Shown here: positions 11,107 to 29,888 of the stretch, piece after piece
How the letters are laid out: each line of letters opens with the position of its first letter
Numbering within the stretch: position 1 is the stretch's first letter
Assembly (NCBI GenBank): GCA_964389315.1
Contig: CAYMDJ010000001.1
Span: forward strand, 543 to 64,542
Length of the DNA stretch: 64,000 bases
From: an uncultured archaeon
GTDB taxonomy: Archaea; Aenigmatarchaeota; Aenigmatarchaeia; QMZP01
Direction: 5' to 3'
The notes under the pieces: generated by a model
What the model saw: only the letters and a program-made list of their open reading frames with translations
Database searches by the model: none
Told to the model about the DNA's origin: nothing
Program-made: the position numbers and the translations under genes

Positions 11107-11189
11107 GGTTCCTCCGGGCGGGTTTTCTGTGATGGTGTTTCTTTTGTGTTATGGTTTGGATTCAAAAGCAGGATCTTCATACCCCTCTA

Positions 11190-11215
11190 TTGATATTTAA
11201 ATATTAATATCCATT
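11190..11215 (-). promoter_or_regulatory. Archaeal TATA box (TTTAAATA) with a BRE-like context upstream of the radical-SAM gene 10198-11106.
   Basis: The sequence GATATTTAAATATTAATATC lies in the 230-bp intergenic gap. It indicates the 23-kb minus-strand run is more than one transcription unit. Confidence 0.35.
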
Positions 11216-11335
11216 TCTTAATGTGCTACCAACAGCTGATTCTGTGATGATAAGCCAGGTCGTTCTGACTTTTATAGGGGCTGTGTTTCTTATAGAGATG
11301 GGAAAGATTAGGAAAGAGTTGAGTAAAGTTAAGCT

Positions 11336-12787: not shown

Positions 12788-12812
12788 TGATTTATTTCAA
12801 TCTTTAAATAGG

Positions 12813-13652
12813 TTATTGAATGGGGGTGAATTCCTTTTCCCCTGACAGGTTCAGGTAGCTCTTCCATATCATGGGGCAGTCCTGCCTGGAGCCACATGTC
12901 TTGCAGGCCTTGGCAAAGGCGAGCTCTGGCCCCTGCTTTGTTACTCCCTTTGCAATCTCCCTGTATCCCTCTGGTAGCGTGCAGAGGGGAAAGTGGAAGA
13001 GTTTTACAGGGATGCCTGCATTGAGGAGGGTGTCTGCTGCCCGGGATGTGTGGGGGACCAGTTTGCTGTATCTGATGAATATCCTTTTCAGGTTAATGAG
13101 GGCGTTCCCGGTGTATTTCATGTTTATGAAGACAACTCGCTCGACTCCAGCAAGGTTTCTGGATATGAAGCGGGCGGTCTCGTCCAGGCTGGCGTAGTTG
13201 AGCCTGCTGACTATTACTCTTAGCTCTACCCTGATTCCCAGGGATGTCAGGGCTTTAATTCCGCGCAGGGTCTGTTCCCAGCTTCCCTTGACCATGGTTA
13301 CTGAGTCGTGGACGGAAGGTAGGTGGCTGTATATCGCTATCCCAACCCTGAAGTTCTTTATTCTCAGATTGGAGAGTCTTTCAGCGAATTCCGGGTAGCT
13401 GAACATCCTGCCGTTGGAGACCAGGAAAAGGAGGGTGTCCGGACGGGTGTCCCTGATGTATGACATCGCCCTGAAGAAGTTTGGGGATATTGTTGGCTCA
13501 CCGCCGCTTATTCCAACGGTATGGCAGTCTTTCGGCAGCCTGTCTATGCACTGTTTTATCGTTTTCCAATGCACGTGGCCGGAAGGTTGGCTGCGGTCTC
13601 TTATGCAGGATATGCAGTTGTTGTTGCAAACCAATGTAAGGGGAATCTCCAT
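12813..13652 (-). CDS. Radical SAM protein of the CNNNCxxC type (paralog family).
   Basis: VCNNNCISC cluster at residues 9-16, GGEPT motif, C-terminal AKACKTCGSRQDCP. Confidence 0.75.
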   Translation of the reverse strand: MEIPLTLVCNNNCISCIRDRSQPSGHVHWKTIKQCIDRLPKDCHTVGISGGEPTISPNFFRAMSYIRDTRPDTLLFLVSNGRMFSYPEFAERLSNLRIKNFRVGIAIYSHLPSVHDSVTMVKGSWEQTLRGIKALTSLGIRVELRVIVSRLNYASLDETARFISRNLAGVERVVFINMKYTGNALINLKRIFIRYSKLVPHTSRAADTLLNAGIPVKLFHFPLCTLPEGYREIAKGVTKQGPELAFAKACKTCGSRQDCPMIWKSYLNLSGEKEFTPIQ

Positions 13653-13711
13653 AACACTTTTTTGCAGGAAGGATTTAAGTTAATGCGGTTGGTGAAACCC
13701 GTGAGCCGGCA

Positions 13712-15412: not shown

Positions 15413-15485
15413 CTTATCTTCCCTTTAAAGGTTTAGTATCATAGAGCTTTATGTTAATCGGACTTTCCAGTGGTTGGGTCGCATA

Positions 15486-16517
15486 TTAAAGTGGCATGAG
15501 TGGATCAGGGGAGGAATAATCCCCACCAACGAGCTTTGCGATGAACCTTGAGCCTCCCTTGCATTTCCAGAGGTAGTCGCACTGCCTGCATGCATCCGGA
15601 ACGAATCTCAGGTATCTCAATTTCAGCATCAGGTCGCTGTTCCAGCATCCCATTATGTCAAGTGGATTCCCTATGTTCTCGCCTATATAATAGCTTGGCT
15701 TTGCAAACCCCCTTGGATCAATCACAAACCTGGAGTGCCCATCATCTGTTATGCCGCCGAGGGAAACGCTTTCCACTCTGGCAGCATCATAGAAGCAGAA
15801 GGGGATTGGATTAGCTATCACATAATTTGTCCCGCTGGTTCTGTTTATATTAATCAGCCTGTCAACAAGGGCCTTGAGGCCTTTTACTGAGGATGTTGCA
15901 TGCTGCTTTGTGGTTGGAATTGTTCTGTAGAGTCCCCAGTGGTCAAGGTCAAGTTCCTGGACGATTGCAGTGAAATAATCAAGATTCGTTATGTTTTCAG
16001 GTGTTGCAACGGTCCCTGCCCTAAGCATCCATATTCCAGTCTTTCTGACCATCCTGAATGAATCTATCTTCCTTCTGAAGGATTCGGCCGTTCCGCCGAG
16101 CCTTGCCTCGCTCTCAGGCGAGAAAGAATTGAGTGAGATGAGCAGGTTGTCTATGTATCTGCCTATTCTTACTGCAGCCTTCTTGTCAATGAGCGTCCCG
16201 TTGCTGTTCAGCAACACATCCATTCCAATGGATTTTGCATGGCGTGCCAGAACGAAGAGGTCCTTCCTAAGGAGCGGCTCCCCGCCCGTAAACCTTATAA
16301 TGTCTACTCCATTGTCATAGACGGCGTCTATTATTTCCTTTATATGACTGGCTGGCATTTCTGGAAGTGTCCTTCCAGCGCTGGCGAATGTGCTCCTGTT
16401 GAAGCAGAACTTACAGGAAAGGTTGCATCGTGCAGTAACTTCTATAATAATCTCGCTGGGCTTCTTTAGGACGCTGGGTACGGATGCATGGCGTTCTTCC
16501 GTAATTTCGTTTTCCAT
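15486..16517 (-). CDS. Radical SAM/SPASM-type peptide-modifying enzyme. It is the candidate maturase for the adjacent His-Xaa-Ser peptide.
   Basis: CNLSCKFC cluster, FTGGEPLL motif, C-terminal CRQCDYLWKCKGG (SPASM-like CxxCx5C). It lies 29 bp downstream of the peptide ORF on the same strand. Confidence 0.8.
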   Translation of the reverse strand: MENEITEERHASVPSVLKKPSEIIIEVTARCNLSCKFCFNRSTFASAGRTLPEMPASHIKEIIDAVYDNGVDIIRFTGGEPLLRKDLFVLARHAKSIGMDVLLNSNGTLIDKKAAVRIGRYIDNLLISLNSFSPESEARLGGTAESFRRKIDSFRMVRKTGIWMLRAGTVATPENITNLDYFTAIVQELDLDHWGLYRTIPTTKQHATSSVKGLKALVDRLININRTSGTNYVIANPIPFCFYDAARVESVSLGGITDDGHSRFVIDPRGFAKPSYYIGENIGNPLDIMGCWNSDLMLKLRYLRFVPDACRQCDYLWKCKGGSRFIAKLVGGDYSSPDPLMPL

Positions 16518-16546
16518 GTTTCTGATTGGTTTGCAGATTTAAACTA

Positions 16547-16819
16547 TCAGTATGATTCGTGGCTTGCGTGGGAGGAGTGGGAGGAGTGGGAGCCGTGGCT
16601 GGCGTGGTGGCCGTGCTGGGCGGTGACAGTGCCTGCATTCCAGGATATGTCAAAGCTGTTGGTGTGGTCGGCGGCAACCTCGGGCAGGAATGAGAGTATT
16701 GATATCGATGCCAGGAAGGCGCCAAGGCTGGCTGCCTTGTGCTTGGCAACCCTCCCCCTGTTGTCCAGGAGGAAGTCTGAGAACGTGTTCTTTATCTTGG
16801 GCAGGATTTCCCTCTTCAT
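16547..16819 (-). CDS. Putative precursor peptide or small protein (90 aa) whose C-terminus carries six tandem His-Xaa-Ser triplets (HAS-HGS-HSS-HSS-HAS-HES-Y), following a hydrophobic segment.
   Basis: Translated by hand: MKREILPKIKNTFSDFLLDNRGRVAKHKAASLGAFLASISILSFLPEVAADHTNSFDISWNAGTVTAQHGHHASHGSHSSHSSHASHESY. The RBS AAGGGAG sits 4 nt before the ATG. Confidence 0.6.
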   Translation of the reverse strand: MKREILPKIKNTFSDFLLDNRGRVAKHKAASLGAFLASISILSFLPEVAADHTNSFDISWNAGTVTAQHGHHASHGSHSSHSSHASHESY

Positions 16820-16883
16820 TCAACTCCCTTATTATTTGGGAACCTTCAAATAAATAGCTGAGTGGCGATTCGGTAAACGTCGC

Positions 16884-17351
16884 TCATGTCTTGGTGGTTT
16901 TCCTGCCCTGAGGGACTGCTTCTGAACGTCCTGGTTTCTCTGTCCCCTTGGCCCTGTCCGGGGTCCAGGGCTTTGCTATCCCCTCCGGGTCATCCAGCCA
17001 ATCGGATTCCTCAGGCTCCTCTGTTTCATCGGCCAATGTGTTTGTGGCAAGAGCCCTCCTTATTATGGCCTCCCTTATTGGCTGCTTCTTTGCGGCCTGT
17101 ATGACGTAGACAGAGTAGTTTATGAGCTCGTTGCTGAAGTCGAGGCAGAGCCTCTTCAGGTCAAGTCCCTTTTCCTTGGGCTTTATTGTGACGATAATCT
17201 GCTTCTTGGGTTCGCCCTCGAACAGGAAGTGAGCCTTGTCGAGGAAGACATAGGCAGCAGAGTAAATGACCTCCGGGGGATAGAGTTTCGTGTTAACGAG
17301 GACTGTGGCTTCCTTCCCCCCTGGAGCAATCCTTATTGTTTTGTGCAGCAT
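16884..17351 (-). CDS. Hypothetical protein (155 aa) with an acidic, Pro-rich C-terminal tail. It is the first gene of the peptide/maturase sub-cluster.
   Basis: ORF track. A TATA-like TATTTAAA lies about 25 bp upstream, and no family was recognised. The motif LCLDFSNELINY is only weakly reminiscent of the HxsD LLNDYxLRE motif. Confidence 0.4.
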   Translation of the reverse strand: MLHKTIRIAPGGKEATVLVNTKLYPPEVIYSAAYVFLDKAHFLFEGEPKKQIIVTIKPKEKGLDLKRLCLDFSNELINYSVYVIQAAKKQPIREAIIRRALATNTLADETEEPEESDWLDDPEGIAKPWTPDRAKGTEKPGRSEAVPQGRKTTKT

Positions 17352-17373
17352 GGAAATATTTTGTATACGGCGT

Positions 17374-18411
17374 TTAAATAGGAATGATTCCTCCCTGAAA
17401 AACGAGCGTGAGGACGTATCCTATAAGGATAAAGGCAGCGAAAGGCTGGGTCTGGCAGACCCTGACCGTAGCGAAGCCTATACTCCCCTGCTTCCTGAGG
17501 CGCTTTATCCTTTCAACGTCCGCCTTCGTGAGCTCATCCAGGCCGTGGACAAACCTTCTCTTCTTCTGCTGGAGGAATTCAACAAGGCTCGAGTTCAGGA
17601 AGCTTATCCTTGAATATTCTTTTCCCTTGCGGTATATTCCCTCTGCCATAATCATGCCCGGCACGAGTTTCTCTATTCGCACCTCGCTGGTGAACGTGTA
17701 GTATGCAAGGTGTATGAGGAAGAACCTGAAGAAAACGAATACACCGGCAACGAGGAGGAAGAACTGAAGGCTCGCCAGGGTGAAGAGGCCCTGGAAATCC
17801 AGGAGGGCCCTCAGGACTGCAAGGAGTGCGAAGAATGCCTCTGCCTTTGCGCTTATCGTGACTGAGAAGAGCTCATATACAGCAAAGAGGATAAGGATGG
17901 TTATGAAGTAGTCTGCCTCTATCCCGGCAAGCCTTATAAGGCCTGTGAAGAACCACATGAAGCCTATCAGGATGATGAATATGAACGATATCCTGTAGGG
18001 GTTGAGCGAATGGGTGATGGCTTTCTTTATGGAGGATGCCTTGCTTCTGATAATGACATAGGCAACCATGAACGCAAAGACCGGGATGAAGATGTTCGCC
18101 ATGTATGGGAGAACAAGGCTTTCTGAATAGAGTCCCTGCGGGAAGAGGAGCAGGAGGGCAGTGAAGAGCTTGGCATCCCCTCCTGGCCAGAGGCCGAGCC
18201 ACCAGAAGAGGAAGGCTATGAAGAAGCCATAGAGGAACGTGGAGGCTATAGCAAGTGTGTCTGTCAAGAGCGCGCCTGAAAGGGCCTGGTAGGCAATGCC
18301 CAGGAGCAGCAGGGCGAGGATGAGCCTGTTCCTTATTATCCCGTGCCTTATGTCCTGGTAGCATATGTATATGCCCAGCAACAGGACAGGGAGAAGAATC
18401 AGGTCCAGCAT
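17374..18411 (-). CDS. Archaeal prepilin/preflagellin peptidase (A24 family, PibD/FlaK-like) with extra C-terminal TM helices.
   Basis: Polytopic membrane protein with an N-terminal Asp region (YQDIRHG) and GLWPGGDAKLF (the GGDxKL second catalytic Asp motif). Confidence 0.7.
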   Translation of the reverse strand: MLDLILLPVLLLGIYICYQDIRHGIIRNRLILALLLLGIAYQALSGALLTDTLAIASTFLYGFFIAFLFWWLGLWPGGDAKLFTALLLLFPQGLYSESLVLPYMANIFIPVFAFMVAYVIIRSKASSIKKAITHSLNPYRISFIFIILIGFMWFFTGLIRLAGIEADYFITILILFAVYELFSVTISAKAEAFFALLAVLRALLDFQGLFTLASLQFFLLVAGVFVFFRFFLIHLAYYTFTSEVRIEKLVPGMIMAEGIYRKGKEYSRISFLNSSLVEFLQQKKRRFVHGLDELTKADVERIKRLRKQGSIGFATVRVCQTQPFAAFILIGYVLTLVFQGGIIPI

Positions 18412-18446
18412 TTTATGTTATTGGGGATTGGGATTAATAACCTGAC

Positions 18447-19886
18447 CTATTTCATTATGTTATCGTTCCTGTACCAGCTTAGGAAGGTTTTCCTGTCCCT
18501 TTCTGAGAAGACCAGCCTCCTGGTTATTGATTCCAGAACGTGGTTGTTAATCTTGCAGCGGTCATCCATGGCGAGCTTGGAGATTATTGTTCCCTGGGCA
18601 GCGTGTGTGTATATCGGACAGATGCCGCAGAACGGGTTCCATGCGCAGTTGTCGCAGAGGTATCCCTGCTTTGAGGATACGTCAATCATGCTGGTAGCAG
18701 TCTTGTTGTTGAAGACCCTGTTGTAGGGTGTGGTCTTTGCGTTTCCGAGCCTCAGCTCCTTGAAGAGCTTGCCCTCATCGCAGGTGTGTATGTCTCCCTT
18801 GTAGTTATAGAACAGCTGCCCGATAGCAGCTCCGCAGGGTGACTGTATGTCAACGAACATCGGATCCCATCTCTGCAGCAGCTTCTTGAGGAAGATGACT
18901 GTCAGATGCTCAAAGAACGGGGTCCTGGCATTGGTCTCTATTATGTAATCCAGCGTTTCGTCCCAGAACTTCAGGTATTCCTCGGGTGTGTAGCCTATGC
19001 TGTTCCATGCCTTGCCTGCAAGGCCTATGTTGTTCATGAACCTCAGGAAGATTCCGTCGAACCCGAGCCTGATATATTCGTCCACCATCTCCCTGCCATA
19101 ACCGAGTGAATGCCTGGTTATGGTGGTAAGGGCCCTGAGGTTGAAGTCGTGCTTCCATTCGTTCTTCATTCTCCCTATCCAGTATACAACGTCATCGTAA
19201 GTTCCCTTGCCATCGATGTATTTCCTGTTCCTGTTGTGGAGCTCCCTGGGGCCGTCCAGGGATGTTGCAATTCCCATAAGCCTCCTCTTGGCCAGGCTTC
19301 TGAGTATGTCCTCGTCCATTAGCGTGAGGTTTGTTACGAGCCTGAAATTCATTTTCTTGCCCGCTTTTCTGGATTTCTCCCTGGCGTAGTCAATTATGTA
19401 TTCCACCATAGGGAAGTTCATGAGGCAGTCCCCTCCCTGGAACTCTATCACGAGGCTGTCAGATGGGGTTTTCAGTATGAAGTCGACCACAGACCTTGCG
19501 GTTTCCTGGTCCATGTCATGCCCCCGCGATCCCTCACTGACCATGGAATGGCAGTATACGCAGGCGGAGTTGCACCTCATCGTGGGTGTGATTATATGGA
19601 GCGTGGGCGGCCTGAAGAGGAAGTGGTTCCTTTCTGCATAGGACCTGACGACATCCCTTACATTCCTCTCGGTGAGGATTATTCCCTTCTGTTCAAGGAA
19701 GGAGAAGAGAGTCGGGTCTTCCTCAACCCTCTCCAGCCTGAGGAGTTCATGCTCTTGCTCAGATAGGACTGCCCATGCACCGTGGTCTGTGGTCACAAGA
19801 TAACAATCTTCCAGCTTCTTGGAAACGAAATAGTTCGATGTATATTGCTTATCAGAGAAATCTGAGCTGAGGTGGGTTATTTCCAT
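18447..19886 (-). CDS. Radical SAM/SPASM enzyme with a roughly 100-aa N-terminal extension, which may be a peptide-recognition (RRE-like) domain.
   Basis: CNSACVYCHS cluster at about residue 105, GGDCLMNF motif, C-terminal CDNCAWNPFCGICP and a further Cys. Confidence 0.75.
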   Translation of the reverse strand: MEITHLSSDFSDKQYTSNYFVSKKLEDCYLVTTDHGAWAVLSEQEHELLRLERVEEDPTLFSFLEQKGIILTERNVRDVVRSYAERNHFLFRPPTLHIITPTMRCNSACVYCHSMVSEGSRGHDMDQETARSVVDFILKTPSDSLVIEFQGGDCLMNFPMVEYIIDYAREKSRKAGKKMNFRLVTNLTLMDEDILRSLAKRRLMGIATSLDGPRELHNRNRKYIDGKGTYDDVVYWIGRMKNEWKHDFNLRALTTITRHSLGYGREMVDEYIRLGFDGIFLRFMNNIGLAGKAWNSIGYTPEEYLKFWDETLDYIIETNARTPFFEHLTVIFLKKLLQRWDPMFVDIQSPCGAAIGQLFYNYKGDIHTCDEGKLFKELRLGNAKTTPYNRVFNNKTATSMIDVSSKQGYLCDNCAWNPFCGICPIYTHAAQGTIISKLAMDDRCKINNHVLESITRRLVFSERDRKTFLSWYRNDNIMK

Positions 19887-19966
19887 TTTATCACATTTTA
19901 GATTGTCGGGATTATATTTAAATCCGGTTAAACATGAACAGGACCTGGTGGATATTTAGCGTGGTG

Positions 19967-22003
19967 TTAATTATAGGAGGCGTCTGATATGCACCTCTCC
20001 ATTATTGAGGGGTCTATTATCTGGTGGCAGGCATCGGGATTCTTTTCTGCAAGGGCATTGCATAGTATTCTTATGTCAGGCTCGGTTATGTTTGTGCATA
20101 GTTCATTTTTGCCTGTTGAGGAGGCGAACTCAAGTATGCAGGAATCCCTGCCAGCCTCGCCCAGGAGCATGCATTCCTCAGGGTTGCCACCAATCAGGGC
20201 GAGGCAGTTGGACCTATACCAGTCAAGGTCTATGTAATTGCAGTATTGCATGTTCTTCGTGAGGAAGGCCAGGCAGAACATCTTCTCGTTGATTGGCCTG
20301 CCCCCACACTCCTGAGAGCCTGTCTCGACGCCCTCTCTGCAGAGGGAGGCTTCTTTGCTGCCTTCTATTCCCTCGCAGAAAGAGGTGTTATAATTATCAA
20401 CTGCCATGGCTATATAGTAATTATCATCAACCGTTATCTGCATTGTCTTGCTTGCAGGAGAGCCTGTGCGGCCGCTGGAATCGATGGGTGTGTATTCTAT
20501 CTTTAGAAAGTCTCCCTCCTCCAGTCCGCTAAGTTTTGTCTGGCTTCCCTCTCCGAAAAGTTTGCCGTTAACATACCATCTGTATTCTGATTCTCCTTCT
20601 ATGCTCAGGCCGAAATAAATTCCCTTTGCAGAGACCTGGGAACCCGGGTATAAAATCTTCGGGTTTGTTACTATGCCCCTGGCAAACGGGGGCAGGTCCG
20701 TTATCTTGATGGTTTCTGAATTTACTGGCTCGCCCTCGAGCCCTGTAAAGTCTATCGGATGGTATGCGGCTCTTATCTCGTCGCCATCCTTTACTGGAAC
20801 CAGTGAGAGGTCCAGGGGATTTGAGCGGGCGTTTTCTATGGGCTGGTTGTTCTTATACCAGACAAGTGGGGATATTGGTTCCGGCATCCTCTCAATGTCG
20901 TTCGGTGAGTGGTATTCAGTATGGAGATGGACATAACCGTTATTTGCGTCGAACCGGAGGGAAATGTATGCGCTCGGTCTTTTTGTGTTGGTAAGTAAGC
21001 CATATGTCTTTGTGCTGGTGTTCGTTCCCTGGTATTCGACCATTAAGGATATGTTGTGTATCCCGTCTCCCCTGCAGAAATCGCTTGTTATGAACGTCTC
21101 CGCATACCTTCCATTAGCGGGACGGGGTTCCCATGGTCCATCATCGCAGCGGAACCAAATCCTGTCCATGCTGTCATTGTATTCGGCCCTTATTATGATG
21201 TAATCGTAAAGCGTCATGTTCATGGAATTTTTCTCCTCCTGTGGGAAAATCAGGTCCTTAAGGTTCGGGTTATACAATTCTGTATATGGCTGGTCTGTCT
21301 TGGAGACTGAATAGGATGTGTATTCACCACCAGGTGTTTTGAATGCAAGAGTATTCTCCCCTTCGGAGAGTGAGTCGCTGCTTATGGAAACCGAACCTGA
21401 ATCGTAGCATGTCCATTCCTGCGGATGCTGCTCTGTGCCGTATATGATTTTGTCATGGTTCAGCGCAATCCGCAGCTTGATGCTGTTATTCACTGTATTC
21501 ATGTAAAGATTGATTGGATAATCCTCTGTAAAACCGTAGAGGGTGCTGCCGAGGATCTTGGTGTATTTGAAATGGTCGCTCCCGGATGGGAGGGCCGAGT
21601 TATCAAAGAAAGTGTATGATGTTATGAATTCTGTTATGGTGGCGTTGTTGATGAATTCGATGGAGTTGTTCGTTATCTTAATGTCGCTTTCATTGCTACA
21701 GGGCCCTGCAACGCCCTTGTCAAGGTCATAGCACATATTGTCCCTGAAAACCATCTCGTATAGCGGGGACCATGGCTCGTATTGTGAAATGCATATCCCA
21801 TTGGCTGACTTGTTTATGAGGGAGAATGTGATTGACTGTCCTTGAAAGAGCACATCGAGATTGTTGGGATTCTCTATATCGAGCCATTCATTAATCCCGC
21901 CCCCTGCAGAGCCTGTTTCCGTGGGCAACGGTTGCAGAACATGAAGGAGCATGATGATTATAAGCACGGCCAGTGGAAGCATTGCATACGTGAGCTTATT
22001 CAT
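19967..22003 (-). CDS. Secreted N-glycosylated protein (678 aa) with a Cys-rich C-terminal region.
   Basis: Signal peptide MNKLTYAMLPLAVLIIIMLLHVL, many N-x-S/T sites, and about 18 Cys in the last 140 aa. It overlaps the upstream rSAM gene by 8 bp. Confidence 0.6.
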   Translation of the reverse strand: MNKLTYAMLPLAVLIIIMLLHVLQPLPTETGSAGGGINEWLDIENPNNLDVLFQGQSITFSLINKSANGICISQYEPWSPLYEMVFRDNMCYDLDKGVAGPCSNESDIKITNNSIEFINNATITEFITSYTFFDNSALPSGSDHFKYTKILGSTLYGFTEDYPINLYMNTVNNSIKLRIALNHDKIIYGTEQHPQEWTCYDSGSVSISSDSLSEGENTLAFKTPGGEYTSYSVSKTDQPYTELYNPNLKDLIFPQEEKNSMNMTLYDYIIIRAEYNDSMDRIWFRCDDGPWEPRPANGRYAETFITSDFCRGDGIHNISLMVEYQGTNTSTKTYGLLTNTKRPSAYISLRFDANNGYVHLHTEYHSPNDIERMPEPISPLVWYKNNQPIENARSNPLDLSLVPVKDGDEIRAAYHPIDFTGLEGEPVNSETIKITDLPPFARGIVTNPKILYPGSQVSAKGIYFGLSIEGESEYRWYVNGKLFGEGSQTKLSGLEEGDFLKIEYTPIDSSGRTGSPASKTMQITVDDNYYIAMAVDNYNTSFCEGIEGSKEASLCREGVETGSQECGGRPINEKMFCLAFLTKNMQYCNYIDLDWYRSNCLALIGGNPEECMLLGEAGRDSCILEFASSTGKNELCTNITEPDIRILCNALAEKNPDACHQIIDPSIMERCISDASYN

Positions 22004-22943
22004 GCTCTATTATTTGTTTCGAATCTTTAATCACCTTTCCCATTACAGGAACGAATTCTGAAGGACCATATCTTTCTGCATACTCCTTCCAGGGGCCTTC
22101 ACATATCAGATCAAAGCGGCATCTCTTGCACTGGTCGAACTTGGCCTTTCCCTGGGTTTTCCTCAGCCGGTCGAAGTTCCTTGTTATTCTCTTTGCATCG
22201 ATTATCTCTGAAGGTGGCATGTATAGCTCTGAGCAATGCCTCTCATAGCCCTTCATGAAGCAGAAGGGATAGGCCTCTATCATGACAGGAGCCTCGTTCG
22301 AGACCGCAATATCTATTGCATCGTGGACGTATTTCATGACCTCTGATTTCCTGGGCACGAGCAGATTGAAGTTCTTCCATGCGTTGCCTACAGGGTGTAT
22401 GAAGGCCAGCTGGAACTGGTCCACCCTGAGGTCTGTAAATAGCTGGACGATATCCTGGAGGTGCCTGGAGTTTGGCTTGGTTATTACGGAGTTCATTACG
22501 ACTCGCTGCCCGAACTCCTTGAGGTTCCTTATTCCCCGGACCGCCTGGTCAAAGGCGCCGGGAGACCTCGTTATATAGTCATGTATTTCCTGAGTGTGCC
22601 CATGGATTGCAGGGGCGAACTCTGTCACACCCGCCCCGATCAGGCTGCGGACAAAGGGTTTATAGCACAGCCTCCTTCCGTTGGTCTGGATCTGGACGTG
22701 TTCGTATCCGATGTCCCTTGCGTGCCTTATTATCTCACAAAGGTCATTCCTCATGGTTGGTTCTCCGCCTGTAAGGACCACCTCATTTGCGCCGTGCGAG
22801 AAGCCAATCTCGAGGTTCCTCTTGACCTGTTCTGTGGAGAGGTCTCCTAGGTGCTTGTTGTGAGCCTGGGGGCATGAGAGGCAGTTGTTGTTGCAGGAAA
22901 ATCCCACCTTCAGGTCAAGGCGCTTTGTTTTTTCTTTGGCCAT
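21996..22943 (-). CDS. Radical SAM protein of the CNNNCxxC type. It is the closest paralog of 10198-11106.
   Basis: SCNNNCLSC cluster, GGEPT motif, C-terminus CKRCRFDLICEGPWKEYAERYGPSEFVPV. Confidence 0.8.
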   Translation of the reverse strand: MAKEKTKRLDLKVGFSCNNNCLSCPQAHNKHLGDLSTEQVKRNLEIGFSHGANEVVLTGGEPTMRNDLCEIIRHARDIGYEHVQIQTNGRRLCYKPFVRSLIGAGVTEFAPAIHGHTQEIHDYITRSPGAFDQAVRGIRNLKEFGQRVVMNSVITKPNSRHLQDIVQLFTDLRVDQFQLAFIHPVGNAWKNFNLLVPRKSEVMKYVHDAIDIAVSNEAPVMIEAYPFCFMKGYERHCSELYMPPSEIIDAKRITRNFDRLRKTQGKAKFDQCKRCRFDLICEGPWKEYAERYGPSEFVPVMGKVIKDSKQIIEHE

Positions 22944-23001: not shown

Positions 23002-24015
23002 TTAAAATCTGAGCATCCTCCTAAAGGATTCATGCAGCTTGTTTATTAAAAATCTGATGATTTTCCTTTTTTTAAGGACCAGCGGGTTCGATAGTCCGAG
23101 CATGCTCATTGGAAGGAAGGCCTTCTTTCTGAATCTGATCGCTATCATAATCTCAATTAGCTTTATTTTTAGAAACGCGGGCAAGGAAACATTCTTGTAT
23201 CTTGATGTTCCCCCGGTCGATATTATGACCGACCTGCAGAAACCGTGATTAATCATATCATAATACACGAATAGCCTGCTTAGATAGCAATTCGTGTCAA
23301 CCGGATCAATTTCTTTGATGAGGCGCTCTTCCATGACTCGCTTTCCTATAAAGGATGGTGACAGAGCAGGCATGACATGGAGGGGGAAAAGAATCCGTGG
23401 CCGACTGCTTTTTGTGTTTATTTCAATTCCCCTGCAAATGTCATTAATCTCTCGCCTCGGGAGTTCGTAGAAAGCATCACCCTGATCGATGACGAATCCA
23501 GTGACTATTAGTGGTATGTTTTCTCTTGCTGCAATCCTTATAAACTCTTCATATTTGCTTCTGAAGCATACCTTGCACAATCTGTTTTCAAGGCTCTGTC
23601 CTCGCTCGAGAAATTTTTGACGAAGAATTTTTCTTAATCCATCATCCTGGTAGTAAAGGGAATCAAGGCCGAGAATCTCGATTGTTCTCTTGATGTTTTC
23701 AATCGCAGCGGGCGGGAGAAATCCGTTGTCTATAGTCACGGCAAGAACCCTTAATTTGTATTTTCTCGATAGGATATACGCAAGATAGGCGCTGTCCTTT
23801 CCGCCGCTTAACCCAAGCAGACAATGATATTTGTAAGGCCTGCCCTTTATCTTATTTATGGTTTTTTCCCAGTTCTTTCTGTAAAGATTCTTTAGTTTTT
23901 TATCGTCCCTGTGCTCCTTGCAAACGTGGCAGAAGTCGCCCCTGGGTATGCCAGATACGTATGTAGGGATTAGGCATTTCCTGCATTCTTCAGCGGAGTC
24001 TCTCATGATAGACAA
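23002..24015 (-). CDS. PP-loop ATP pyrophosphatase with an N-terminal zinc ribbon (TtuA/NcsA-like sulfurtransferase family).
   Basis: CRKC...CHVC at the N-terminus, LSGGKDS PP-loop, internal CKVC. The C-terminal roughly 80 aa is low-complexity, so the true stop may lie earlier. Confidence 0.6.
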   Translation of the reverse strand: MSIMRDSAEECRKCLIPTYVSGIPRGDFCHVCKEHRDDKKLKNLYRKNWEKTINKIKGRPYKYHCLLGLSGGKDSAYLAYILSRKYKLRVLAVTIDNGFLPPAAIENIKRTIEILGLDSLYYQDDGLRKILRQKFLERGQSLENRLCKVCFRSKYEEFIRIAARENIPLIVTGFVIDQGDAFYELPRREINDICRGIEINTKSSRPRILFPLHVMPALSPSFIGKRVMEERLIKEIDPVDTNCYLSRLFVYYDMINHGFCRSVIISTGGTSRYKNVSLPAFLKIKLIEIMIAIRFRKKAFLPMSMLGLSNPLVLKKRKIIRFLINKLHESFRRMLRF

Positions 24016-24085
24016 TTTCTTTTGTTATTTAAAACGTCATGCTTAAGTGTCCATGATAAGAAGCTTTGAGTTGGTTTTTTAATGA

Positions 24086-26029
24086 TTGTTGCTCAGAACT
24101 TTAATAGATTGTATGGGAGCCATATTCGGATATGTCGGTTTTGAAGACAACAATCTTGTTAGGAAAATGTCCAGACCAATGAGACATAGGTCAATGGATG
24201 GGTATAGGTATTACAAGAACAAGGACTTGGTCTTTGGCCAGGGGATTTCTAAGATCGGTGCTGATTGCTCTCCTGGACCAATCATAAGCGAGGATGGTGA
24301 TATCGTCCTTCTTTTTGACGGGCGCGTTTTTAGAGCAGATAAAATCAGGTCATCCCTTGAATCAGAAGGGCATGAATTCAAGACCGGTTTTAGCGGAGAG
24401 GTAATCCTTCATTTGTATGAGGAATGTGGGATGAAATTCCTTAACAGGATAAACGGTGATTTTGGGTTCTGTTTGTATGATTCCGGTAAAAGGAAACTTT
24501 TTTTGTGTTCTGATAACTCGGGGTCAAGGCCCATATATTACCATGAAAACGGCAGGGCGCTTGTTTTTGCGTCTGACATTAAACCTATCTTACAGTACGA
24601 TGTGTTTGAGAGGAAACTTGATGAGTACGCATTCAATTTGTTCTTGACCTATCTCTTTCTGCCAACAGAGAAGACCATGTTGCAGGGAATTAGGAGGGTC
24701 ATGCCATCCACTTATGTTGTTTTTGATTCGGGTTCTTTAGAGACCGTTAGATATTTTGAAATAAAAGAGAATATTGACAACACGAAGAGTGAGGAATATT
24801 TCATTAAGAAAACAAGAGCGGGGCTGGAAAGGGCCATAGATGACAGGTTTATTGATGGCGTTCCAATACACATGAGCCTGGGCGGCCTTGATTCCAGTGC
24901 AGTTGTAGGAATCCTCTCATCAAGAGCGGACGTCATCAATACGCATACGATAAGGTTTGATAACGAATTTGATGAGGGCGGGTTTGCAAGAGAGGTTTCG
25001 GAAATGCACGGAACAAGCCATCATGAATTTTATGTTGATGGTGATTCAATAGAGGGCTTTTACAAAAAAATGCTGGCAAATTTCAACTCACCCTCTGTCA
25101 TAAACATGGTTGCAATTAGCCTATATAGTATATTTTCAAAGATGGCTGGTAAGAGGTCGCTTTTTTTCAATGGAGAGGGTGCAGATGAGGTCTTTGGTGG
25201 CTTAAAGAACGAAAGTATGCTAAAATACAGGAGCCTTCTGAATATGCCTAAACCTGTAAGGAATTTTATAAGCAAGTCTTTTATTGCATCGGCCAACGGG
25301 ATGGGGGGTTTTGCTGATTTCATGCGGCTCAATAAGGGCCGGTTTGAGAGATCTACCATCAATGAATATGCTAAATTCCTCAAGGAATTGGTTTCCATGG
25401 ACAGGAGCTATGCGAACCTCACGCCAACCTTTTATTTTGATGGGTATGAAGCCGGTGTAAATTGTGATGGCAAAGACCTGTTTTTATACAGGAAAGGCCT
25501 CAATGACAAGCGTTTTTGTTATGTGAACAGACTAATGAAAATGGACACCGAATCCAGGGCGTATCTTGATGGTTTGGCAAGAAACGAAATAATATGCAGT
25601 TCTCGCGGACTGCTTAACAACTGCCCGTTCCTGGACAAGGAACTGATAATTTTTTCTTTCAAGGTTCCCATGAGGTATAAATTCAGAAGGAATTCAAATA
25701 AAGCGCTTTTGGCGAAGGCCACAAAAAATCTTTTTCCGAAGAGAGATTTGATTGGTAAGGGTTTGTTTACCAGGGGGGCACTTAGTGTTTATAACGACTA
25801 TTTTACTCAAAACCGCTCGCTTTTAGAGAACCTATTTGAGAAATCAGAGGTGTTCAACATGTTCAGAAGGGATTTTCTTGATAAAAACGTCAATCAACTT
25901 GCTAGGAGGTCCAGCGATTGCTTCAGCACAAAGGGTTTTTATAGAATCTCAAAAATACATACGCTGCTCTCGCTTGGTTTATGGTATGAACATTATTTCA
26001 ACGACGAGAAGATAAGCAATTTTTTCTGA
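24086..26029 (+). CDS. Asparagine-synthetase-B-like adenylating enzyme. The Ntn glutaminase Cys at position 2 is missing (TTG start; the N-terminus reads ..DCMGAIFGY).
   Basis: HRSMDG (similar to HRGPDG), and the SLGGLDSS PP-motif of the synthetase domain. It is about 640 aa, as in AsnB and the lasso-cyclase/amidotransferase relatives. Confidence 0.7.
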   Translation: MLLRTLIDCMGAIFGYVGFEDNNLVRKMSRPMRHRSMDGYRYYKNKDLVFGQGISKIGADCSPGPIISEDGDIVLLFDGRVFRADKIRSSLESEGHEFKTGFSGEVILHLYEECGMKFLNRINGDFGFCLYDSGKRKLFLCSDNSGSRPIYYHENGRALVFASDIKPILQYDVFERKLDEYAFNLFLTYLFLPTEKTMLQGIRRVMPSTYVVFDSGSLETVRYFEIKENIDNTKSEEYFIKKTRAGLERAIDDRFIDGVPIHMSLGGLDSSAVVGILSSRADVINTHTIRFDNEFDEGGFAREVSEMHGTSHHEFYVDGDSIEGFYKKMLANFNSPSVINMVAISLYSIFSKMAGKRSLFFNGEGADEVFGGLKNESMLKYRSLLNMPKPVRNFISKSFIASANGMGGFADFMRLNKGRFERSTINEYAKFLKELVSMDRSYANLTPTFYFDGYEAGVNCDGKDLFLYRKGLNDKRFCYVNRLMKMDTESRAYLDGLARNEIICSSRGLLNNCPFLDKELIIFSFKVPMRYKFRRNSNKALLAKATKNLFPKRDLIGKGLFTRGALSVYNDYFTQNRSLLENLFEKSEVFNMFRRDFLDKNVNQLARRSSDCFSTKGFYRISKIHTLLSLGLWYEHYFNDEKISNFF

Positions 26030-26049
26030 AGGCCCATTGGGACAACTTC

Positions 26050-27180
26050 CTAAGTCATTTTTTTAATAATGTCCATTGGTCTTGGAGGACAGCCCGGAAC
26101 CCATATAAGGTTATGCTTCCTAGCGAGTTCCCTTGTGCAGTTCCCTACACATACGACCTTGCCGTGCTTCTCTGGGACGTCGCTTTTTCCTGATAGGATG
26201 TCAACCCTCCTGAGGATTCCGTTATAGAAGAATATCGGCCACAATAAAGGGTTTCTCATTATCTGGATATTTAAGTCGATAAGTGCGCGGGTGCAACCCG
26301 AACATGTTTCGTCTGTGAACCAGTAATAGAAGTTGAATTTCCTGTCATGATCTGTCGGTTTCTTGAATTTCATCTTATGCGCAGATAGCTCGTTAAGAAC
26401 TTCCTTTGGGAAGGATATTCGCCTTTTCCCTGAAGCGATTCTGAGGTGCTCTATCTTCATTGGGTCCATTCCCATGAGCATAGAGGACAGGAAATCCACC
26501 TTAAGGGCGTCTGTTCCTATGACAAGCAGGTTTATGTTTTTTACTGGATTGCCTGTAGAACCGGGGCCATTCCCTTCAACGCCGCTAGTTGCATCCACCA
26601 TGGAAAGGTCTGGCTTTATGGCAGAATATAGCTTTGCTATGTTCCTGTGAAGGTCTCTGTGAGAAGACCGCTTTTCCTGAAGTGTCAGGAGCCCTTTCTG
26701 GTTCTTAAGGCAAAGGGTAACCCCTGTTTGTGAATGGGTCTTGAGCTTGGATATGTTTATGTATTCTGAGTTAAGAACCAGTCTCGGTATTGATATCTTG
26801 CGGCCGGCTGCATTGAGGTATATCCTCTCGGTCTCATATAAGTCTACTAGGGCCACGCCGGTCTTTTTGCAGAGTTTCTTGTATCCTGTTTTATTGAAAA
26901 CGTGGCGGGTGTTTTCTGATACAGGACCCTCTCCCACGGCTATTTCATCTATATCAATGTCTTGGAGGTATTCTATAAGACCTTCCACTACCTTTAGGTT
27001 TGTTATGTAAGGTGTCCCGGGGCGGTATTCGCCGACTATGTTAGGCTTTATGAAAACCTTTTTTTTCTTTGGTCTGTAACCAAAACTGGCGAGTGATTCG
27101 TATACGTCTTGTCTGGTTTTCCTTCCTAGTTTGAATATTTCAGGGTTCATGAAATCACTAGATGTTATTATATTTTTCAT
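26050..27180 (-). CDS. DUF362-family protein (function unknown, frequently Fe-S associated).
   Basis: Motifs IKPNIV, LKTHSQTGVTLCLKNQKG and VDATSGVEGNGP. It overlaps the upstream rSAM gene by 23 bp. Confidence 0.55.
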   Translation of the reverse strand: MKNIITSSDFMNPEIFKLGRKTRQDVYESLASFGYRPKKKKVFIKPNIVGEYRPGTPYITNLKVVEGLIEYLQDIDIDEIAVGEGPVSENTRHVFNKTGYKKLCKKTGVALVDLYETERIYLNAAGRKISIPRLVLNSEYINISKLKTHSQTGVTLCLKNQKGLLTLQEKRSSHRDLHRNIAKLYSAIKPDLSMVDATSGVEGNGPGSTGNPVKNINLLVIGTDALKVDFLSSMLMGMDPMKIEHLRIASGKRRISFPKEVLNELSAHKMKFKKPTDHDRKFNFYYWFTDETCSGCTRALIDLNIQIMRNPLLWPIFFYNGILRRVDILSGKSDVPEKHGKVVCVGNCTRELARKHNLIWVPGCPPRPMDIIKKMT

Positions 27181-28384
27181 TCATCACAAGCGAATAACAG
27201 AAAGGGACGATTCTGTTGTCTTTTGTCAGCTGCGCGGTCATACACCTTTCTATGTTATCAATATCTAATGTGTATTTATCTGGCCATGACCTGATATAGA
27301 CATTCAGTTCGCGCGGGCTCTTGTTTTTTAGCACTCTTTTTGCTATAAGTTTCAGTGTAATGGCCTTTCTTCTCTTTAATATGTTTCCCAAAAACATCAG
27401 GTTTTTTGACCTTGATTTCTTGAATACCTCAAAATCGATACCCTCTGACAGGAACTCTATCTTTTTGTTGTTTATAAAAATTGTTATTCTCAGTGAGCAG
27501 GGAAGTATTGTGCTATGGTTTTTAATTAACCTTTTTATTTTCTCCTGCAGAACACACTCCAAAAGAAGCTGTTTCTTACCTATATGTATAGCATTGCTTA
27601 ATACTTTTATTATTTCGGACAGGAATATCCTTTCTGGGTTGCCATGCCTTCCGATATGAACGGCGCTTCTTATTCTAAGTTCGTTTATGTTTCTTTTCAT
27701 GAGGCAGAAATCTATGATATTGGGGATTTCTTTTTCATTCCAGTTTTTTATGGCCATGAAAGAAAATATTGTCATTATTTTCGAATGCTTGAGGTTATCC
27801 ATGGCTGCCATCTTGGCAGGGAGGTTGTCTCCTTCTATCTTTTTCATCAATTTCCTGTCAAGCGAATTGATTGACAGATGAACTGCACCGAGGCCTGCAT
27901 CCTTTAGCTTCCCGACATACCCGGGGCTCGAAAGCTTTATACCGTTTGTGAGAAGGCTTACCGTCTTTCCATTTTTTGATGCGAACCTTATTATCTCAGA
28001 AAGTTCTTTCCTCAGGGCAGGTTCGCCGCCAGAGAGCCTTATGTATTTGCCTCCGAATCTTGCTATCTCTGACTTTATATCTTGCAGGCTCTTTTCCTTC
28101 TCCTTTTTTTTCGGAAGATAACAGAAAAAGCAGTTGTTGTTGCAGTCGTGTGTGAGTGTTATGGTCAGGGAATCAAAAAACTTTCTCTTTCCAGGTTTGT
28201 GGTTGAGTATTTCCCTGTATAACCAGGCATCCTTTTCTATAAGCGACCTTGTTTTCCCATGTGAAGGACATGTTTTAACCATATATATCTTTCCACCCTC
28301 TTCTAAGATGTCTGAATCTATTTTTTCCATGCACACCGGGCAAATGCTTGTTGTCTTTTTTAAAGCTTTTATATTAATCACCAA
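27158..28384 (-). CDS. Radical SAM protein with an N-terminal zinc-ribbon-like motif (CPVC...CPSHG) and a CNNNCxxC cluster.
   Basis: THDCNNNCFFCY cluster, LSGGEPAL motif. It overlaps the upstream B12-rSAM gene by 11 bp. Confidence 0.7.
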   Translation of the reverse strand: MVINIKALKKTTSICPVCMEKIDSDILEEGGKIYMVKTCPSHGKTRSLIEKDAWLYREILNHKPGKRKFFDSLTITLTHDCNNNCFFCYLPKKKEKEKSLQDIKSEIARFGGKYIRLSGGEPALRKELSEIIRFASKNGKTVSLLTNGIKLSSPGYVGKLKDAGLGAVHLSINSLDRKLMKKIEGDNLPAKMAAMDNLKHSKIMTIFSFMAIKNWNEKEIPNIIDFCLMKRNINELRIRSAVHIGRHGNPERIFLSEIIKVLSNAIHIGKKQLLLECVLQEKIKRLIKNHSTILPCSLRITIFINNKKIEFLSEGIDFEVFKKSRSKNLMFLGNILKRRKAITLKLIAKRVLKNKSPRELNVYIRSWPDKYTLDIDNIERCMTAQLTKDNRIVPFCYSLVMNEKYNNI

Positions 28385-29888
28385 GCGACCGTCTATTAAA
28401 AATTCTTTTCAATGTAAAGTATATATAAAGGCGCGGCAGGCACATCTTCTTCCTTCCGCTGAAATTTATCCTTCTTTTCCTCGATAAGAAATCCCTTGGT
28501 TTCCTTACAACCAACATGAACGTGTAAAGGGGTTTCGGAGGCAGGAACCTGTGGATGTTGTGCCTTATGAGGAATGATGATAGCCTGCCGGGAACCATAT
28601 TCAGGACGTAGAGCGAATTGACAGACTTGGCAAGTTCCCTGTTGAAGGTGTCCCCCTTATGTGTGAAGAAGCTCGTATTCTCTGATTCCTCTATCCTATT
28701 CATCATCTCATCGTCCAGAAGGCCCATCTGCCTTGCTATCTTCACTATCTCTGTCTTGGGGAAATACCTGAGCCAGTATGTCTGGACGAATTCCACGCCG
28801 TTCTCGCTGTAGAACCTGGCCATCTCAAGCACGTCATCGCTCTTCTGCAGCGGGAGGCCTACCATGTTGTCAGTGGTTATGTGTATGCTCTCCTTCTTGA
28901 ACAGCCTTATTGCCTTCCTGGTGTCTTTTGTGGAGCATCTCCTGTTGAGGATGTTTCTTCCCAACTCCTTGTTGTGGGTCTGGACGCCCATCTCGATGGC
29001 CACACAACCTGCTTTTCTAAGCATGGATGCTGTGTCTTCCCTGACATTAGCAGGGTATATCCAGCAAAAGAAGGGGAGGCCAATCTCCTTCCCGTATCTT
29101 TCTGAGAACTCCCTCAGCCAGGCATGGTCGTGATTGAAGGTCTCGTCGTGGAATATTATCTCCCTGAATCCCGCCCTCTTGGCCAGCCTGAGCTCCTCTA
29201 TGACATTGCCTACGCTCCGCCTGCGCAGGTATTTGCCCTTGCCCATGTAAAGCTTCTTCATGTAGGAGTTGTTGCAGTAGGTGCACGAGAACGGGCACCC
29301 CCTACTCGTTATGGTGGTATACCTGTCAAAGAATCTGGGGACTATCTCGCTGAATATGGACTTGTCAGGGAACGGGAGGGAATCGAGGTCTTGTATAAGG
29401 GGCCTTACCGGATTCCTGTATATCTTTCTGCCCTTTTTGGACCAGACGTTGGCTATCCTTCGGGTGGAGCGTCCTGACTCGAGTGCGTCCGTGAGTTCCA
29501 GAAGGGCATGCTCGCCCTCACCTACCACTACGAAATCAACGAAATCCTTCCTTATAACCCGCCCGGGAACGGACGTAGGGTGTATGCCGCCGAACACTAT
29601 CGGGACTTTGGTGTGTTTCTTTATCTCCCTTGCAATCCTGCATGCCCAGGAATAGTTGTCTGATATTACAGAGAAGCACACCAAATCCGGATTAAGTTCC
29701 TTAATCTCTTTTAGCAGGATTTTTTTGAAACCAATGACCCTATGGAGCCACCCGGCCCTTATTACAGAGTCCATGAAGAGCATGGGATCGAAAACGAGCT
29801 CTGTCTGGTGGCCGGCTTGCTTCAGGACCGCTGAGAGATACTCGACCCCCAGGCAGTCTGTCTCCGGGTGCACAAAAACCACCTTCAT
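28374..29888 (-). CDS. Cobalamin (B12)-binding radical SAM enzyme (class B, methyltransferase-like).
   Basis: N-terminal Rossmann-like B12-binding region (MKVVFVHPETDCLGVEYLSAVLKQAGH ... VVVGEGEH), then the CPFSCTYC rSAM cluster. Confidence 0.75.
   Translation of the reverse strand: MKVVFVHPETDCLGVEYLSAVLKQAGHQTELVFDPMLFMDSVIRAGWLHRVIGFKKILLKEIKELNPDLVCFSVISDNYSWACRIAREIKKHTKVPIVFGGIHPTSVPGRVIRKDFVDFVVVGEGEHALLELTDALESGRSTRRIANVWSKKGRKIYRNPVRPLIQDLDSLPFPDKSIFSEIVPRFFDRYTTITSRGCPFSCTYCNNSYMKKLYMGKGKYLRRRSVGNVIEELRLAKRAGFREIIFHDETFNHDHAWLREFSERYGKEIGLPFFCWIYPANVREDTASMLRKAGCVAIEMGVQTHNKELGRNILNRRCSTKDTRKAIRLFKKESIHITTDNMVGLPLQKSDDVLEMARFYSENGVEFVQTYWLRYFPKTEIVKIARQMGLLDDEMMNRIEESENTSFFTHKGDTFNRELAKSVNSLYVLNMVPGRLSSFLIRHNIHRFLPPKPLYTFMLVVRKPRDFLSRKRRINFSGRKKMCLPRLYIYFTLKRIFNRRSLGD

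Follow-up and report, generated by a model that had tools for sequence, protein, structure and literature searches.

Do two divergently transcribed genes for adenylate-forming enzymes act together when one of them is a homologue of the asparagine synthetase AsnB that has lost the residue used to hydrolyse glutamine, and what might each of them do? This question is raised by a gene pair in a 64-kb stretch of archaeal DNA (the window, by which we mean the whole stretch analysed; all coordinates refer to it). An earlier note on this DNA had described a TtuA-like PP-loop ATPase beside an AsnB homologue without its N-terminal nucleophile (Ntn) cysteine, and had suggested an amide- or thio-modification step. 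That both genes encode PP-loop enzymes which would form adenylates was supported by their motifs. We established the domain architecture, the loss of catalytic residues, the placement by family and fold, the absence of conserved pairing and the genomic contexts. The results indicated that the AsnB-like protein has a predicted dead glutaminase, that its neighbour is related to the N-acetyl sugar amidotransferase (NASAT) family rather than to TtuA, and that the two genes are not a conserved functional pair. They look like independent ATP-dependent tailoring enzymes.

Start codon and glutaminase half of the AsnB-like protein

The two open reading frames (ORFs) run divergently, one at 23002..24015 on the minus strand (337 amino acids from a TTG codon) and the other at 24086..26029 on the plus strand (647 amino acids from TTG). 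They are 70 bp apart if both begin at TTG, and for those starts the arrangement given earlier was confirmed. The start of the AsnB-like gene at TTG 24086 was not upheld. In-frame TAA TGA codons stand immediately 5′ of this TTG, public gene calls give a protein of 638 amino acids from ATG 24113, and five of five homologues begin MGAI(F/L)GY. In four related loci the sequence 5′ of the conserved ATG was unrelated or contained stop codons. The gene therefore most likely begins at ATG 24113. The PP-loop gene likely begins at ATG 24006, as in the public call of 334 amino acids. With these probable ATG starts the intergenic gap is 106 bp. Within it, A/T-rich TATA-like stretches could be read at ~24025-24034 and ~24074-24081, and with promoters there, each TTG codon would be left out of its transcript or would fall on the extreme border of it. 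An upstream start yielding an N-terminal Cys was ruled out by the stop codons before TTG 24086 and by the position of the only upstream in-frame Cys codon (24110-24112). This codon comes immediately before the conserved Met (position −1) and does not align with the Cys of the canonical M-C-G-I; it is present in the window and at the locus of the closest relative (L003) but absent in L004, L006 and L007.

Pfam matches to GATase_7/GATase_6 and Asn_synthase revealed a full two-domain AsnB homologue. Its N-terminus reads M-G-A-I-F-G-Y, and the Cys nucleophile after the initiator Met is absent. At the nucleophile position six of six clade members have Gly, whereas 38 of the 42 relatives in the alignment have Cys. 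When the protein was mapped onto E. coli AsnB (1ct9), Cys1 was replaced by Gly2, R49 by G44, N74 by D69, E76 by R71 and D98 by S94. In the E. coli enzyme, C1, R49, N74, E76 and D98 make up the glutamine pocket. Across the clade, the columns equivalent to R49, N74, E76 and D98 read GGGGGG, DADDDD, RRRREG and SSSSAS, while the AsnB residues at the glutamine-site columns are kept in 29 to 40 of the 42 canonical relatives. The N-terminal stretch MGAIFGYxGFED is strongly conserved in the clade. As the Cys loss is fixed and four more glutamine-site residues are gone, neither chance nor a sequencing artefact accounts for it, and because both the nucleophile and the pocket are missing, glutamine cannot be the nitrogen donor. 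Judged from sequence by five independent criteria, the glutaminase is dead throughout this very small clade, and the earlier expectation that glutamine hydrolysis is unlikely was borne out.

Synthetase half, fold and rarity

We then considered the synthetase half, whose SGGLDSS motif had been called intact. The GGLDS core and the adenylating domain are kept; the motif itself reads S-L-G-G-L-D-S-S, so that its first Ser is Leu. The clade also retains Glu or Asp at the E348 position and the D351 and K449 equivalents of E. coli AsnB. Mean column identity within the clade is 62%, and the N-terminus and the catalytic Glu/Asp/Lys equivalents are invariant. An AlphaFold2 model (predicted local distance difference test score (pLDDT) 88.5, predicted template modelling score (pTM) 0.90) gave a two-domain fold of Ntn glutaminase plus synthetase. 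Foldseek matched this model to 7ylz with a template modelling (TM) score of 0.70-0.73 and to 1ct9 with 0.57-0.59, and the nearest structures were TsnB9, AsnB, human ASNS, beta-lactam synthetase and CarA. Sequence similarity to 1q15 and 1jgt was weak (E about 1e-6).

The protein fell under every curated NCBIfam cut-off. The AsnB model TIGR01536 scored 240.3 bits against a cut-off of 267.1, and the second-best model, eps_aminotran_1 (TIGR03108), 190.9 against 816.9. The lasso cyclase model NF033535 gave 140.3 bits against 525, and no B-protein or RRE-type neighbour was found, so the proposed match to lasso-peptide cyclases did not hold. A search of 5.8 billion protein clusters returned six proteins at 42-100% identity (P0001-P0006), the next being at 30% or less; all six start MGAI, and an MC start was found in 97 of the 120 matches listed. 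In a profile search of 1.84 billion representatives at 50% identity, scores typical of the clade were reached by a single full-length representative and two fragments. The full-length match after these scored 335 bits versus 1051, and among the 149 that follow, 134 begin MC. One further contig came from a scan of 241 million metagenome records. The AsnB-like lineage is thus very small and long-branched.

The PP-loop protein is related to the NASAT family

The earlier note had assigned the divergent gene to a zinc-ribbon PP-loop enzyme of the TtuA/NcsA type. The N-terminal CxxC...CxxC ribbon and SGGKDS stood up, and the TtuA/NcsA type did not; the protein is NASAT/WbuX-like. Pfam gave only a weak match to NAD_synthase, a PP-loop domain. 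The best NCBIfam match was WbuX (TIGR03573; 91.1 bits versus a cut-off of 203.2, covering residues 10-174 only), and the TtuA model NF049949 scored 25 bits versus 450. A profile built from the protein and its relatives matched the solved Legionella NASAT 8wex over its full length (E = 1.6e-32), compared with 3e-6 for NcsA and 1.5e-5 for TtuA. The AlphaFold2 model (pLDDT 82) had 8wex as its top Foldseek match (TMq 0.60), and the TM scores of NcsA, LarE and TtuA to it were 0.36-0.39. The NASAT family is defined by a PP-loop SGGxDS and a tetracysteine motif CxxCxn[GN]xCxxC (PMC10607449). Both hallmarks were found, the second as C11-x2-C14...G-D-F-C29-x2-C32 with one extra residue between Gly and Cys. 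No Cys follows residue 259, that is, the C-terminal zinc finger is absent. TtuA/NcsA orthology was therefore ruled out by hidden Markov model score, fold and missing C-terminal zinc finger, and, judging by sequence and predicted fold, an orphan branch of the NASAT fold is the most fitting label for the protein.

The protein also carries a CxxC...C trio (C147, C150 and C243), which we found in 104 of 120 homologues (P0121-P0240). A CXXC-C motif is that of [4Fe-4S] PP-loop sulfur transferases (PMC9283937), and the [4Fe-4S] ligands of M. maripaludis NcsA include Cys142 and Cys145 (PMC10067955). The trio probably carries a metal or [4Fe-4S] site. The solved NASAT 8wex has no Cys at the trio positions. 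Among six PGAP-annotated plasmid NASATs, five are without the trio and one has it (L091 6001-7206, followed directly by hisH-hisF). The trio in a HisH/HisF-coupled NASAT means that it is compatible with amidotransfer and is no proof of sulfur chemistry, and we dropped it as such. No HisH/HisF match was found in the 64-kb window (tblastn, E <= 0.01), nor was such a partner found at 80 genome loci of PP-loop relatives; HisH/HisF are present at four of the six plasmid NASAT loci. The relatives come mostly from anaerobes.

Several neighbourhoods of these relatives were recorded. The two closest homologues adjoin genes for B12-binding radical SAM proteins. Homologues lie directly beside such genes at L008 530-3022 and L009 8629-10978, and also at L057, L069, L080 and L088. 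In Chloroflexota the loci hold a B12-radical SAM gene with an ATP-grasp gene and a phosphatidylserine-decarboxylase-like gene, and Lachnospiraceae loci have an AMP-binding enzyme next to the homologue, accompanied by a carrier protein and a formyltransferase-like gene. Enolase-superfamily proteins are encoded beside still other relatives.

The two genes are not a conserved pair

The functional pairing proposed earlier was examined from both sides. The locus of the closest AsnB-like relative (L003, 55% identity) keeps the order His-Xaa-Ser (Hxs) cassette, AsnB-like gene, DUF362 gene, and has only 50 bp at the place of the PP-loop gene. No PP-loop homologue was found in the AsnB-clade loci L003, L004, L006 and L007. 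Conversely, no AsnB neighbour was found at the 80 PP-loop genome loci or beside the two closest PP-loop homologues. A conserved two-gene module was thus ruled out by synteny on both sides.

We also found that both genes lie in a low-GC patch (23002-28384), with a G+C content of 0.42 for the PP-loop gene, 0.41 for the AsnB-like gene, 0.44 for the DUF362 gene and 0.38 for a radical SAM gene. The flanks are at about 0.50 and the whole window at 0.50. The patch therefore fits a variable, possibly acquired segment. A sulfatase gene at 11336-12787 is likewise low in GC (0.41), and the related loci L003-L009 come from AT-rich genomes (0.32-0.47).

NASAT and AsnB genes do co-occur as separate tailoring genes in the bacterial nonulosonic-acid-type glycan clusters L090 and L096. 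In plasmid glycan clusters (L090 5166-8125, L092 754-4016, L096 1-5140) the NASAT gene is adjacent to or divergent from asnB. Also encoded in these bacterial clusters is a Cys-less 'asparagine synthase-related protein' (MSRIAGI...), and the gene right after it is that of a nucleotide-sugar dehydrogenase.

Several relatives of the AsnB-like gene lie in glycan-type clusters

To place the AsnB-like gene, we compared the contexts of its relatives. At L004 the neighbours are a polysaccharide deacetylase, a family 2 glycosyltransferase (GT2), DegT, a FemAB-family protein and a flippase with 14 transmembrane segments, and at L006 and L007 DegT, NTP-transferase, sulfatases and GT2 are encoded. For the nearest Cys-bearing relative (L098, 31% identity; MCGIFGFYGFED) the operon begins with a UDP-sugar dehydrogenase, the AsnB gene itself comes second, and epimerase, DegT, FemAB-like and PglD-like acetyltransferase genes follow, with GT1 and GT2 genes nearby. 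In the Wbp/Vim pathway of P. gingivalis, the AsnB homologue WbpS (PGN_1234) converts a uronic acid to a uronamide (PMC7468200). The gene sets of L004 and L098 mirror this Wbp/Vim/WbpS set.

Surroundings in the window

The features of the locus are collected in Table 1. On the minus strand, the order from 24006 downwards is the PP-loop gene, an HxsC4-like radical SAM gene, a secreted Cys-rich protein of 678 amino acids, HxsB and an A24 prepilin-type peptidase. After the peptidase come HxsD, a His-Xaa-Ser precursor of 90 amino acids, radical SAM genes, PMT_2, a sulfatase and an ORF of at least 3100 amino acids. Beyond the AsnB-like gene come DUF362 (26050-27180), a zinc-ribbon radical SAM gene (27158-28384), a B12-binding radical SAM gene (28374-29888) and further radical SAM genes, so that the setting in a radical-SAM-rich region was confirmed by Pfam. 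DUF362 adjoins the AsnB-like gene in L003 too. Two GT2 genes lie further along the window, beyond the AsnB-like gene. Pfam scans of the ORFs between 10198 and 44402 found no transglutaminase-like or PqqD-like neighbour. In the minus-strand operon 26050-29888, the B12-radical SAM protein weakly matches HpnJ and the ladderane-lipid B12 radical SAM protein, and the zinc-ribbon radical SAM protein weakly matches TrsS and the tetraether lipid synthase Tes.

Table 1. Features of the divergent gene pair and of the neighbouring genes (coordinates in the window)
Feature	Position	Strand	Basis or remark
AsnB-like coding sequence, 638 amino acids	24113..26029	+	Probable start ATG 24113; mechanical ORF from TTG 24086
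NASAT-like PP-loop coding sequence, 334 amino acids	23002..24006	-	From ATG 24006; mechanical ORF from TTG 24015, 337 amino acids
Divergent intergenic region, 106 bp	24007..24112	.	Between the probable ATG starts
N-terminal class II (Ntn) glutaminase-like domain, predicted catalytically dead	24113..24712	+	Residue mapping to E. coli AsnB
Variant PP-loop S-L-G-G-L-D-S-S	24875..24898	+	First Ser of SGGxDS is Leu in six of six clade members
GEGADEVFGG motif	25172..25201	+	Equivalents of E. coli AsnB G347, E348 and D351; clade-conserved
K449 equivalent, in NSNKALL	25691-25711	+	Alignment to E. coli AsnB
Tetracysteine zinc ribbon CRKC...CHVC (C11, C14, C29, C32)	23920..23985	-	Sequence; family definition in PMC10607449
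PP-loop SGGKDS (residues 70-75)	23791..23808	-	Sequence
CKVC (C147, C150)	23566..23577	-	Profile alignment with NcsA Cys142/Cys145 and the mmLarE CxxC
C243, third Cys of the CxxC...C trio	23287..23289	-	Invariant in alignments A3 and A4
HxsB	18447-19886	-	395.7 bits versus cut-off 370
HxsD	16884-17351	-	His-Xaa-Ser cassette
Three HxsC/HxsC4-like radical SAM genes	12813-13652, 21996-22943, 10198-11106	-	His-Xaa-Ser system
A24 prepilin peptidase	17374-18411	-	Inside the Hxs cassette
His-Xaa-Ser system with extra genes	10198-22943	-	Core order conserved in L003
Precursor ORF of 90 amino acids, unannotated	16547-16819	-	Ends in His-Xaa-Ser repeats HASHGSHSSHSSHASHESY
Protein of 678 amino acids	19967-22003	-	Between HxsB and an HxsC4-like gene
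Giant ORF, at least 3100 amino acids, runs off the window	1-9348	-	Signal- or transmembrane-like start; very high density of N-x-S/T sequons

The precursor had HxsA4 as its best NCBIfam match (37.5 bits, under the cut-off of 55) and has a nearly identical counterpart in L003. The hydrophobic segment that follows ...KHKAA might act as a class III (prepilin-type) signal, in keeping with an A24 peptidase gene in the cassette. The 678-residue protein has an N-terminal hydrophobic segment, many N-x-S/T sequons and regularly spaced Cys residues towards its C-terminus. It shares 40% identity with a protein of 689 amino acids in L003 and may be the substrate of a radical SAM/SPASM enzyme. The giant ORF, which lies downstream of the whole minus-strand gene array, probably encodes a huge glycosylated surface protein. 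The possibility that the ORF-poor first 5 kb was an rRNA operon was ruled out, since Rfam found nothing and the stretch is the giant ORF. These surroundings point to the maturation of archaeal surface glycoprotein and glycan together with a His-Xaa-Ser radical-SAM cassette.

The closest named homologues of the glycyl-tRNA synthetase (GlyRS, 53429-54937, minus strand), at 64-70% identity, are all from Candidatus Aenigmarchaeota or Aenigmatarchaeota, and Orc1/Cdc6 and family B DNA polymerase (PolB) are encoded in the window. Therefore, the source is probably a DPANN archaeon. A free-standing ORF with a LAGLIDADG domain (45730-46401, minus strand) lies directly downstream of the PolB gene (46563-49238, minus strand).

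Discussion

We tentatively favour, as quite possible, the reading that the two genes encode separate adenylate-forming tailoring enzymes in a surface maturation island, one a WbpS-like enzyme that amidates or ligates a carboxylate and the other a NASAT-fold enzyme. The AsnB-like protein would descend from sugar-cluster AsnB amidotransferases of the WbpS kind, having wholly lost glutamine hydrolysis. Its synthetase domain would adenylate a carboxylate of the substrate, which is most likely a sugar or glycan building block, and free ammonia or another amine would attack the acyl-AMP to give a carboxamide or an amide link. The conserved inactive N-domain would be left with just a structural or ligand-binding role, like its counterpart in beta-lactam synthetase. 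The PP-loop protein would adenylate a carbonyl oxygen and swap in a nucleophile; canonical NASATs use ammonia for this, turning an acetamido into an acetamidino group. What we infer here is the nature of the substrates and of the nitrogen donor, and Fe-S binding by the Cys trio.

Several findings weigh against this reading. The 64-kb window yielded no gene for a nucleotide-sugar dehydrogenase, DegT, NeuB or an epimerase, so a sugar carboxylate as substrate is not directly supported at this locus, and no UDP-sugar dehydrogenase was found at the five AsnB-clade loci. The immediate neighbours in the window and in L003 are the Hxs cassette and the DUF362/radical SAM operon, not sugar genes, and the AsnB clade offers just five independent contexts. 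The PP-loop protein is below the curated NASAT cut-off (91 versus 203 bits), and its close relatives adjoin B12-radical SAM, AMP-binding or enolase-type genes rather than glycan genes. Furthermore, the conserved E and R of the ExRxPFLD motif are gone in the AsnB-like clade, and together with the change of Ser to Leu in the PP-loop this loss would leave ATP-dependent activity unproven.

Because the window lacks sugar dehydrogenase, DegT and NeuB genes and the Hxs cassette is the immediate partner there and in L003, a peptide or protein substrate remains a serious rival, although on balance we consider it unlikely. By analogy with lasso cyclases and beta-lactam synthetase, the AsnB-like enzyme would then serve Hxs4 peptide or protein maturation, adenylating the C-terminus or an Asp/Glu carboxylate of HxsA4 or of the 678-residue Cys-rich protein to form a C-terminal amide, an isopeptide or a macrolactam. 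Cys-less AsnB homologues are the rule where peptide or lactam amides are formed, as in lasso cyclases, beta-lactam synthetase and CarA. The gene stands divergently beside an HxsC4-like radical SAM gene, the 678/689-residue protein, HxsB, the A24 peptidase, HxsD and the HxsA4-like precursor at both loci, HxsB exceeds its curated cut-off, and the precursor barely differs between them. On the other hand, three of the five clade contexts (L004, L006 and L007) are sugar-type clusters without Hxs genes, the nearest canonical relative (L098) sits in a nucleotide-sugar operon, the lasso-cyclase score stays under that of the generic AsnB model, and no protease or RRE partner was seen in the Pfam scans. 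A further rival, that the AsnB-like protein is an ammonia-dependent housekeeping asparagine synthetase or a catalytically inert pseudoenzyme, appears very unlikely. C1A mutants of E. coli AsnB retain NH3-dependent synthesis, so that a Cys-less AsnB could still make asparagine, and the altered PP-loop and ExRxPFLD residues could abolish activity. Yet the gene is always found in surface or glycan-type clusters, the tiny and patchy distribution of the clade is a misfit for a housekeeping gene, and the strong conservation within it argues against decay.

For the PP-loop protein, the alternative is that its NASAT fold serves [4Fe-4S]-dependent sulfur transfer, in which a carbonyl or carboxyl oxygen would be adenylated and replaced by cluster-bound sulfide to give a thioamide, a thioacetamido group or a thiocarboxylate. 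The combination of SGGKDS with C147-x2-C150...C243, the alignment of its CxxC with those of NcsA and mmLarE, the retention of the trio across the homologues, the anaerobic origin of most of them and the lack of a HisH/HisF ammonia-delivery partner in the window and at the 80 related loci are all in its favour. We nevertheless regard it as distinctly unlikely, as the identical trio occurs in L091, the protein is nearest overall to 8wex in sequence and fold and not to TtuA, NcsA or LarE, and no sulfur-carrier or desulfurase gene was seen nearby. The thio-modification suggested earlier is thus partly rescued by the motif shared with [4Fe-4S] sulfur transferases, and with L091 in view it stays rather improbable. 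We give equally little weight to a broader proposal, in which the dead glutaminase domain has been repurposed for a non-ammonia amine or a macromolecular acceptor, and/or the NASAT-fold neighbour is a sulfur-installing [4Fe-4S] enzyme. The AsnB-like enzyme might in that case couple a surface-glycan carboxylate to an amino acid, to a peptide such as HxsA4 or to a protein, and the neighbour might place a thioamide or thioacetamido group rather than nitrogen; the MGAIFGYxGFED N-terminus of the dead domain is more conserved than in active AsnBs. Finally, the two proteins might form a coupled module for one substrate, either with the AsnB-like protein replacing HisH/HisF in nitrogen delivery or with sequential formation of an amide and an amidine on one sugar. 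They are divergent neighbours with a common 106-bp control region, both genes lie in the low-GC patch, and a NASAT adjoins AsnB at an Azospirillum locus (L090) where HisH/HisF are absent. But the pairing is missing from every other locus examined, from either gene's side, and the AsnB-like protein cannot supply ammonia because its glutaminase site is gone; such a module seems highly unlikely.

Little is known, above all in archaea, about enzymes that decorate surface sugars with amide-linked substituents (carboxamides, amino acids). DPANN archaea attach to their hosts through surface structures, and the AsnB lineage with a dead glutaminase, found in glycan-type clusters, offers a concrete candidate for this chemistry in them. 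In addition, a large and mostly uncharacterised branch of the NASAT fold keeps a three-Cys motif which the only solved NASAT is without, raising the question of whether many NASATs are metal-cluster enzymes or other catalysts. For annotation, the locus encodes neither a TtuA nor a lasso cyclase, and it is not a conserved two-gene module. If true, a repurposed dead domain or a sulfur-installing neighbour would bring to archaeal surface biogenesis a type of reaction that is new for the fold concerned.

Comparison with known systems

WbpS, WbqG and PGN_1234 (TIGR03108) are AsnB-family sugar amidotransferases that form uronamides. The AsnB-like protein shares with them the two-domain architecture and, through its relatives L004 and L098, the setting in surface-glycan clusters with DegT, flippase, FemAB/VimA-like and deacetylase genes (PMC7468200). 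It differs in lacking the Cys nucleophile and glutamine pocket, in the Leu of its PP-loop, in a score far under the family cut-off, and in the absence of a UDP-sugar dehydrogenase from the genes found in the window. With E. coli AsnB, human ASNS and TsnB9 it has in common the fold (TM 0.57-0.73), the GGLDS core and the equivalents of E348, D351 and K449, whereas all five residues of the glutamine site are replaced; outside its own clade, the closest full-length relatives are only about 30% identical. Like beta-lactam synthetase, carbapenam synthetase and the lasso cyclases, it keeps an inactive N-domain beside an adenylating domain and would not use glutamine, but the window has neither the lasso set of precursor, protease and RRE nor clavam or carbapenem genes.

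The PP-loop protein resembles TtuA, NcsA and [4Fe-4S]-LarE in its PP-loop, N-terminal zinc finger and CxxC...C motif, and departs from them in a NASAT-like C-terminal half, without the C-terminal zinc finger and without a tRNA-modification context. Compared with the NASATs (WbuX, WbpG, PseA and LpNASAT 8wex), it is without a HisH/HisF (WbuY/WbuZ) partner and has a CxxC...C trio that 8wex and most of the plasmid NASATs checked are without, while the tetracysteine zinc ribbon, SGGKDS and the best profile and fold match are shared. Collectively, Cys-less AsnB homologues and NASATs are both known kinds of enzyme; the AsnB-like protein is a rare variant among the former, and the PP-loop protein represents an uncharacterised branch of the latter.

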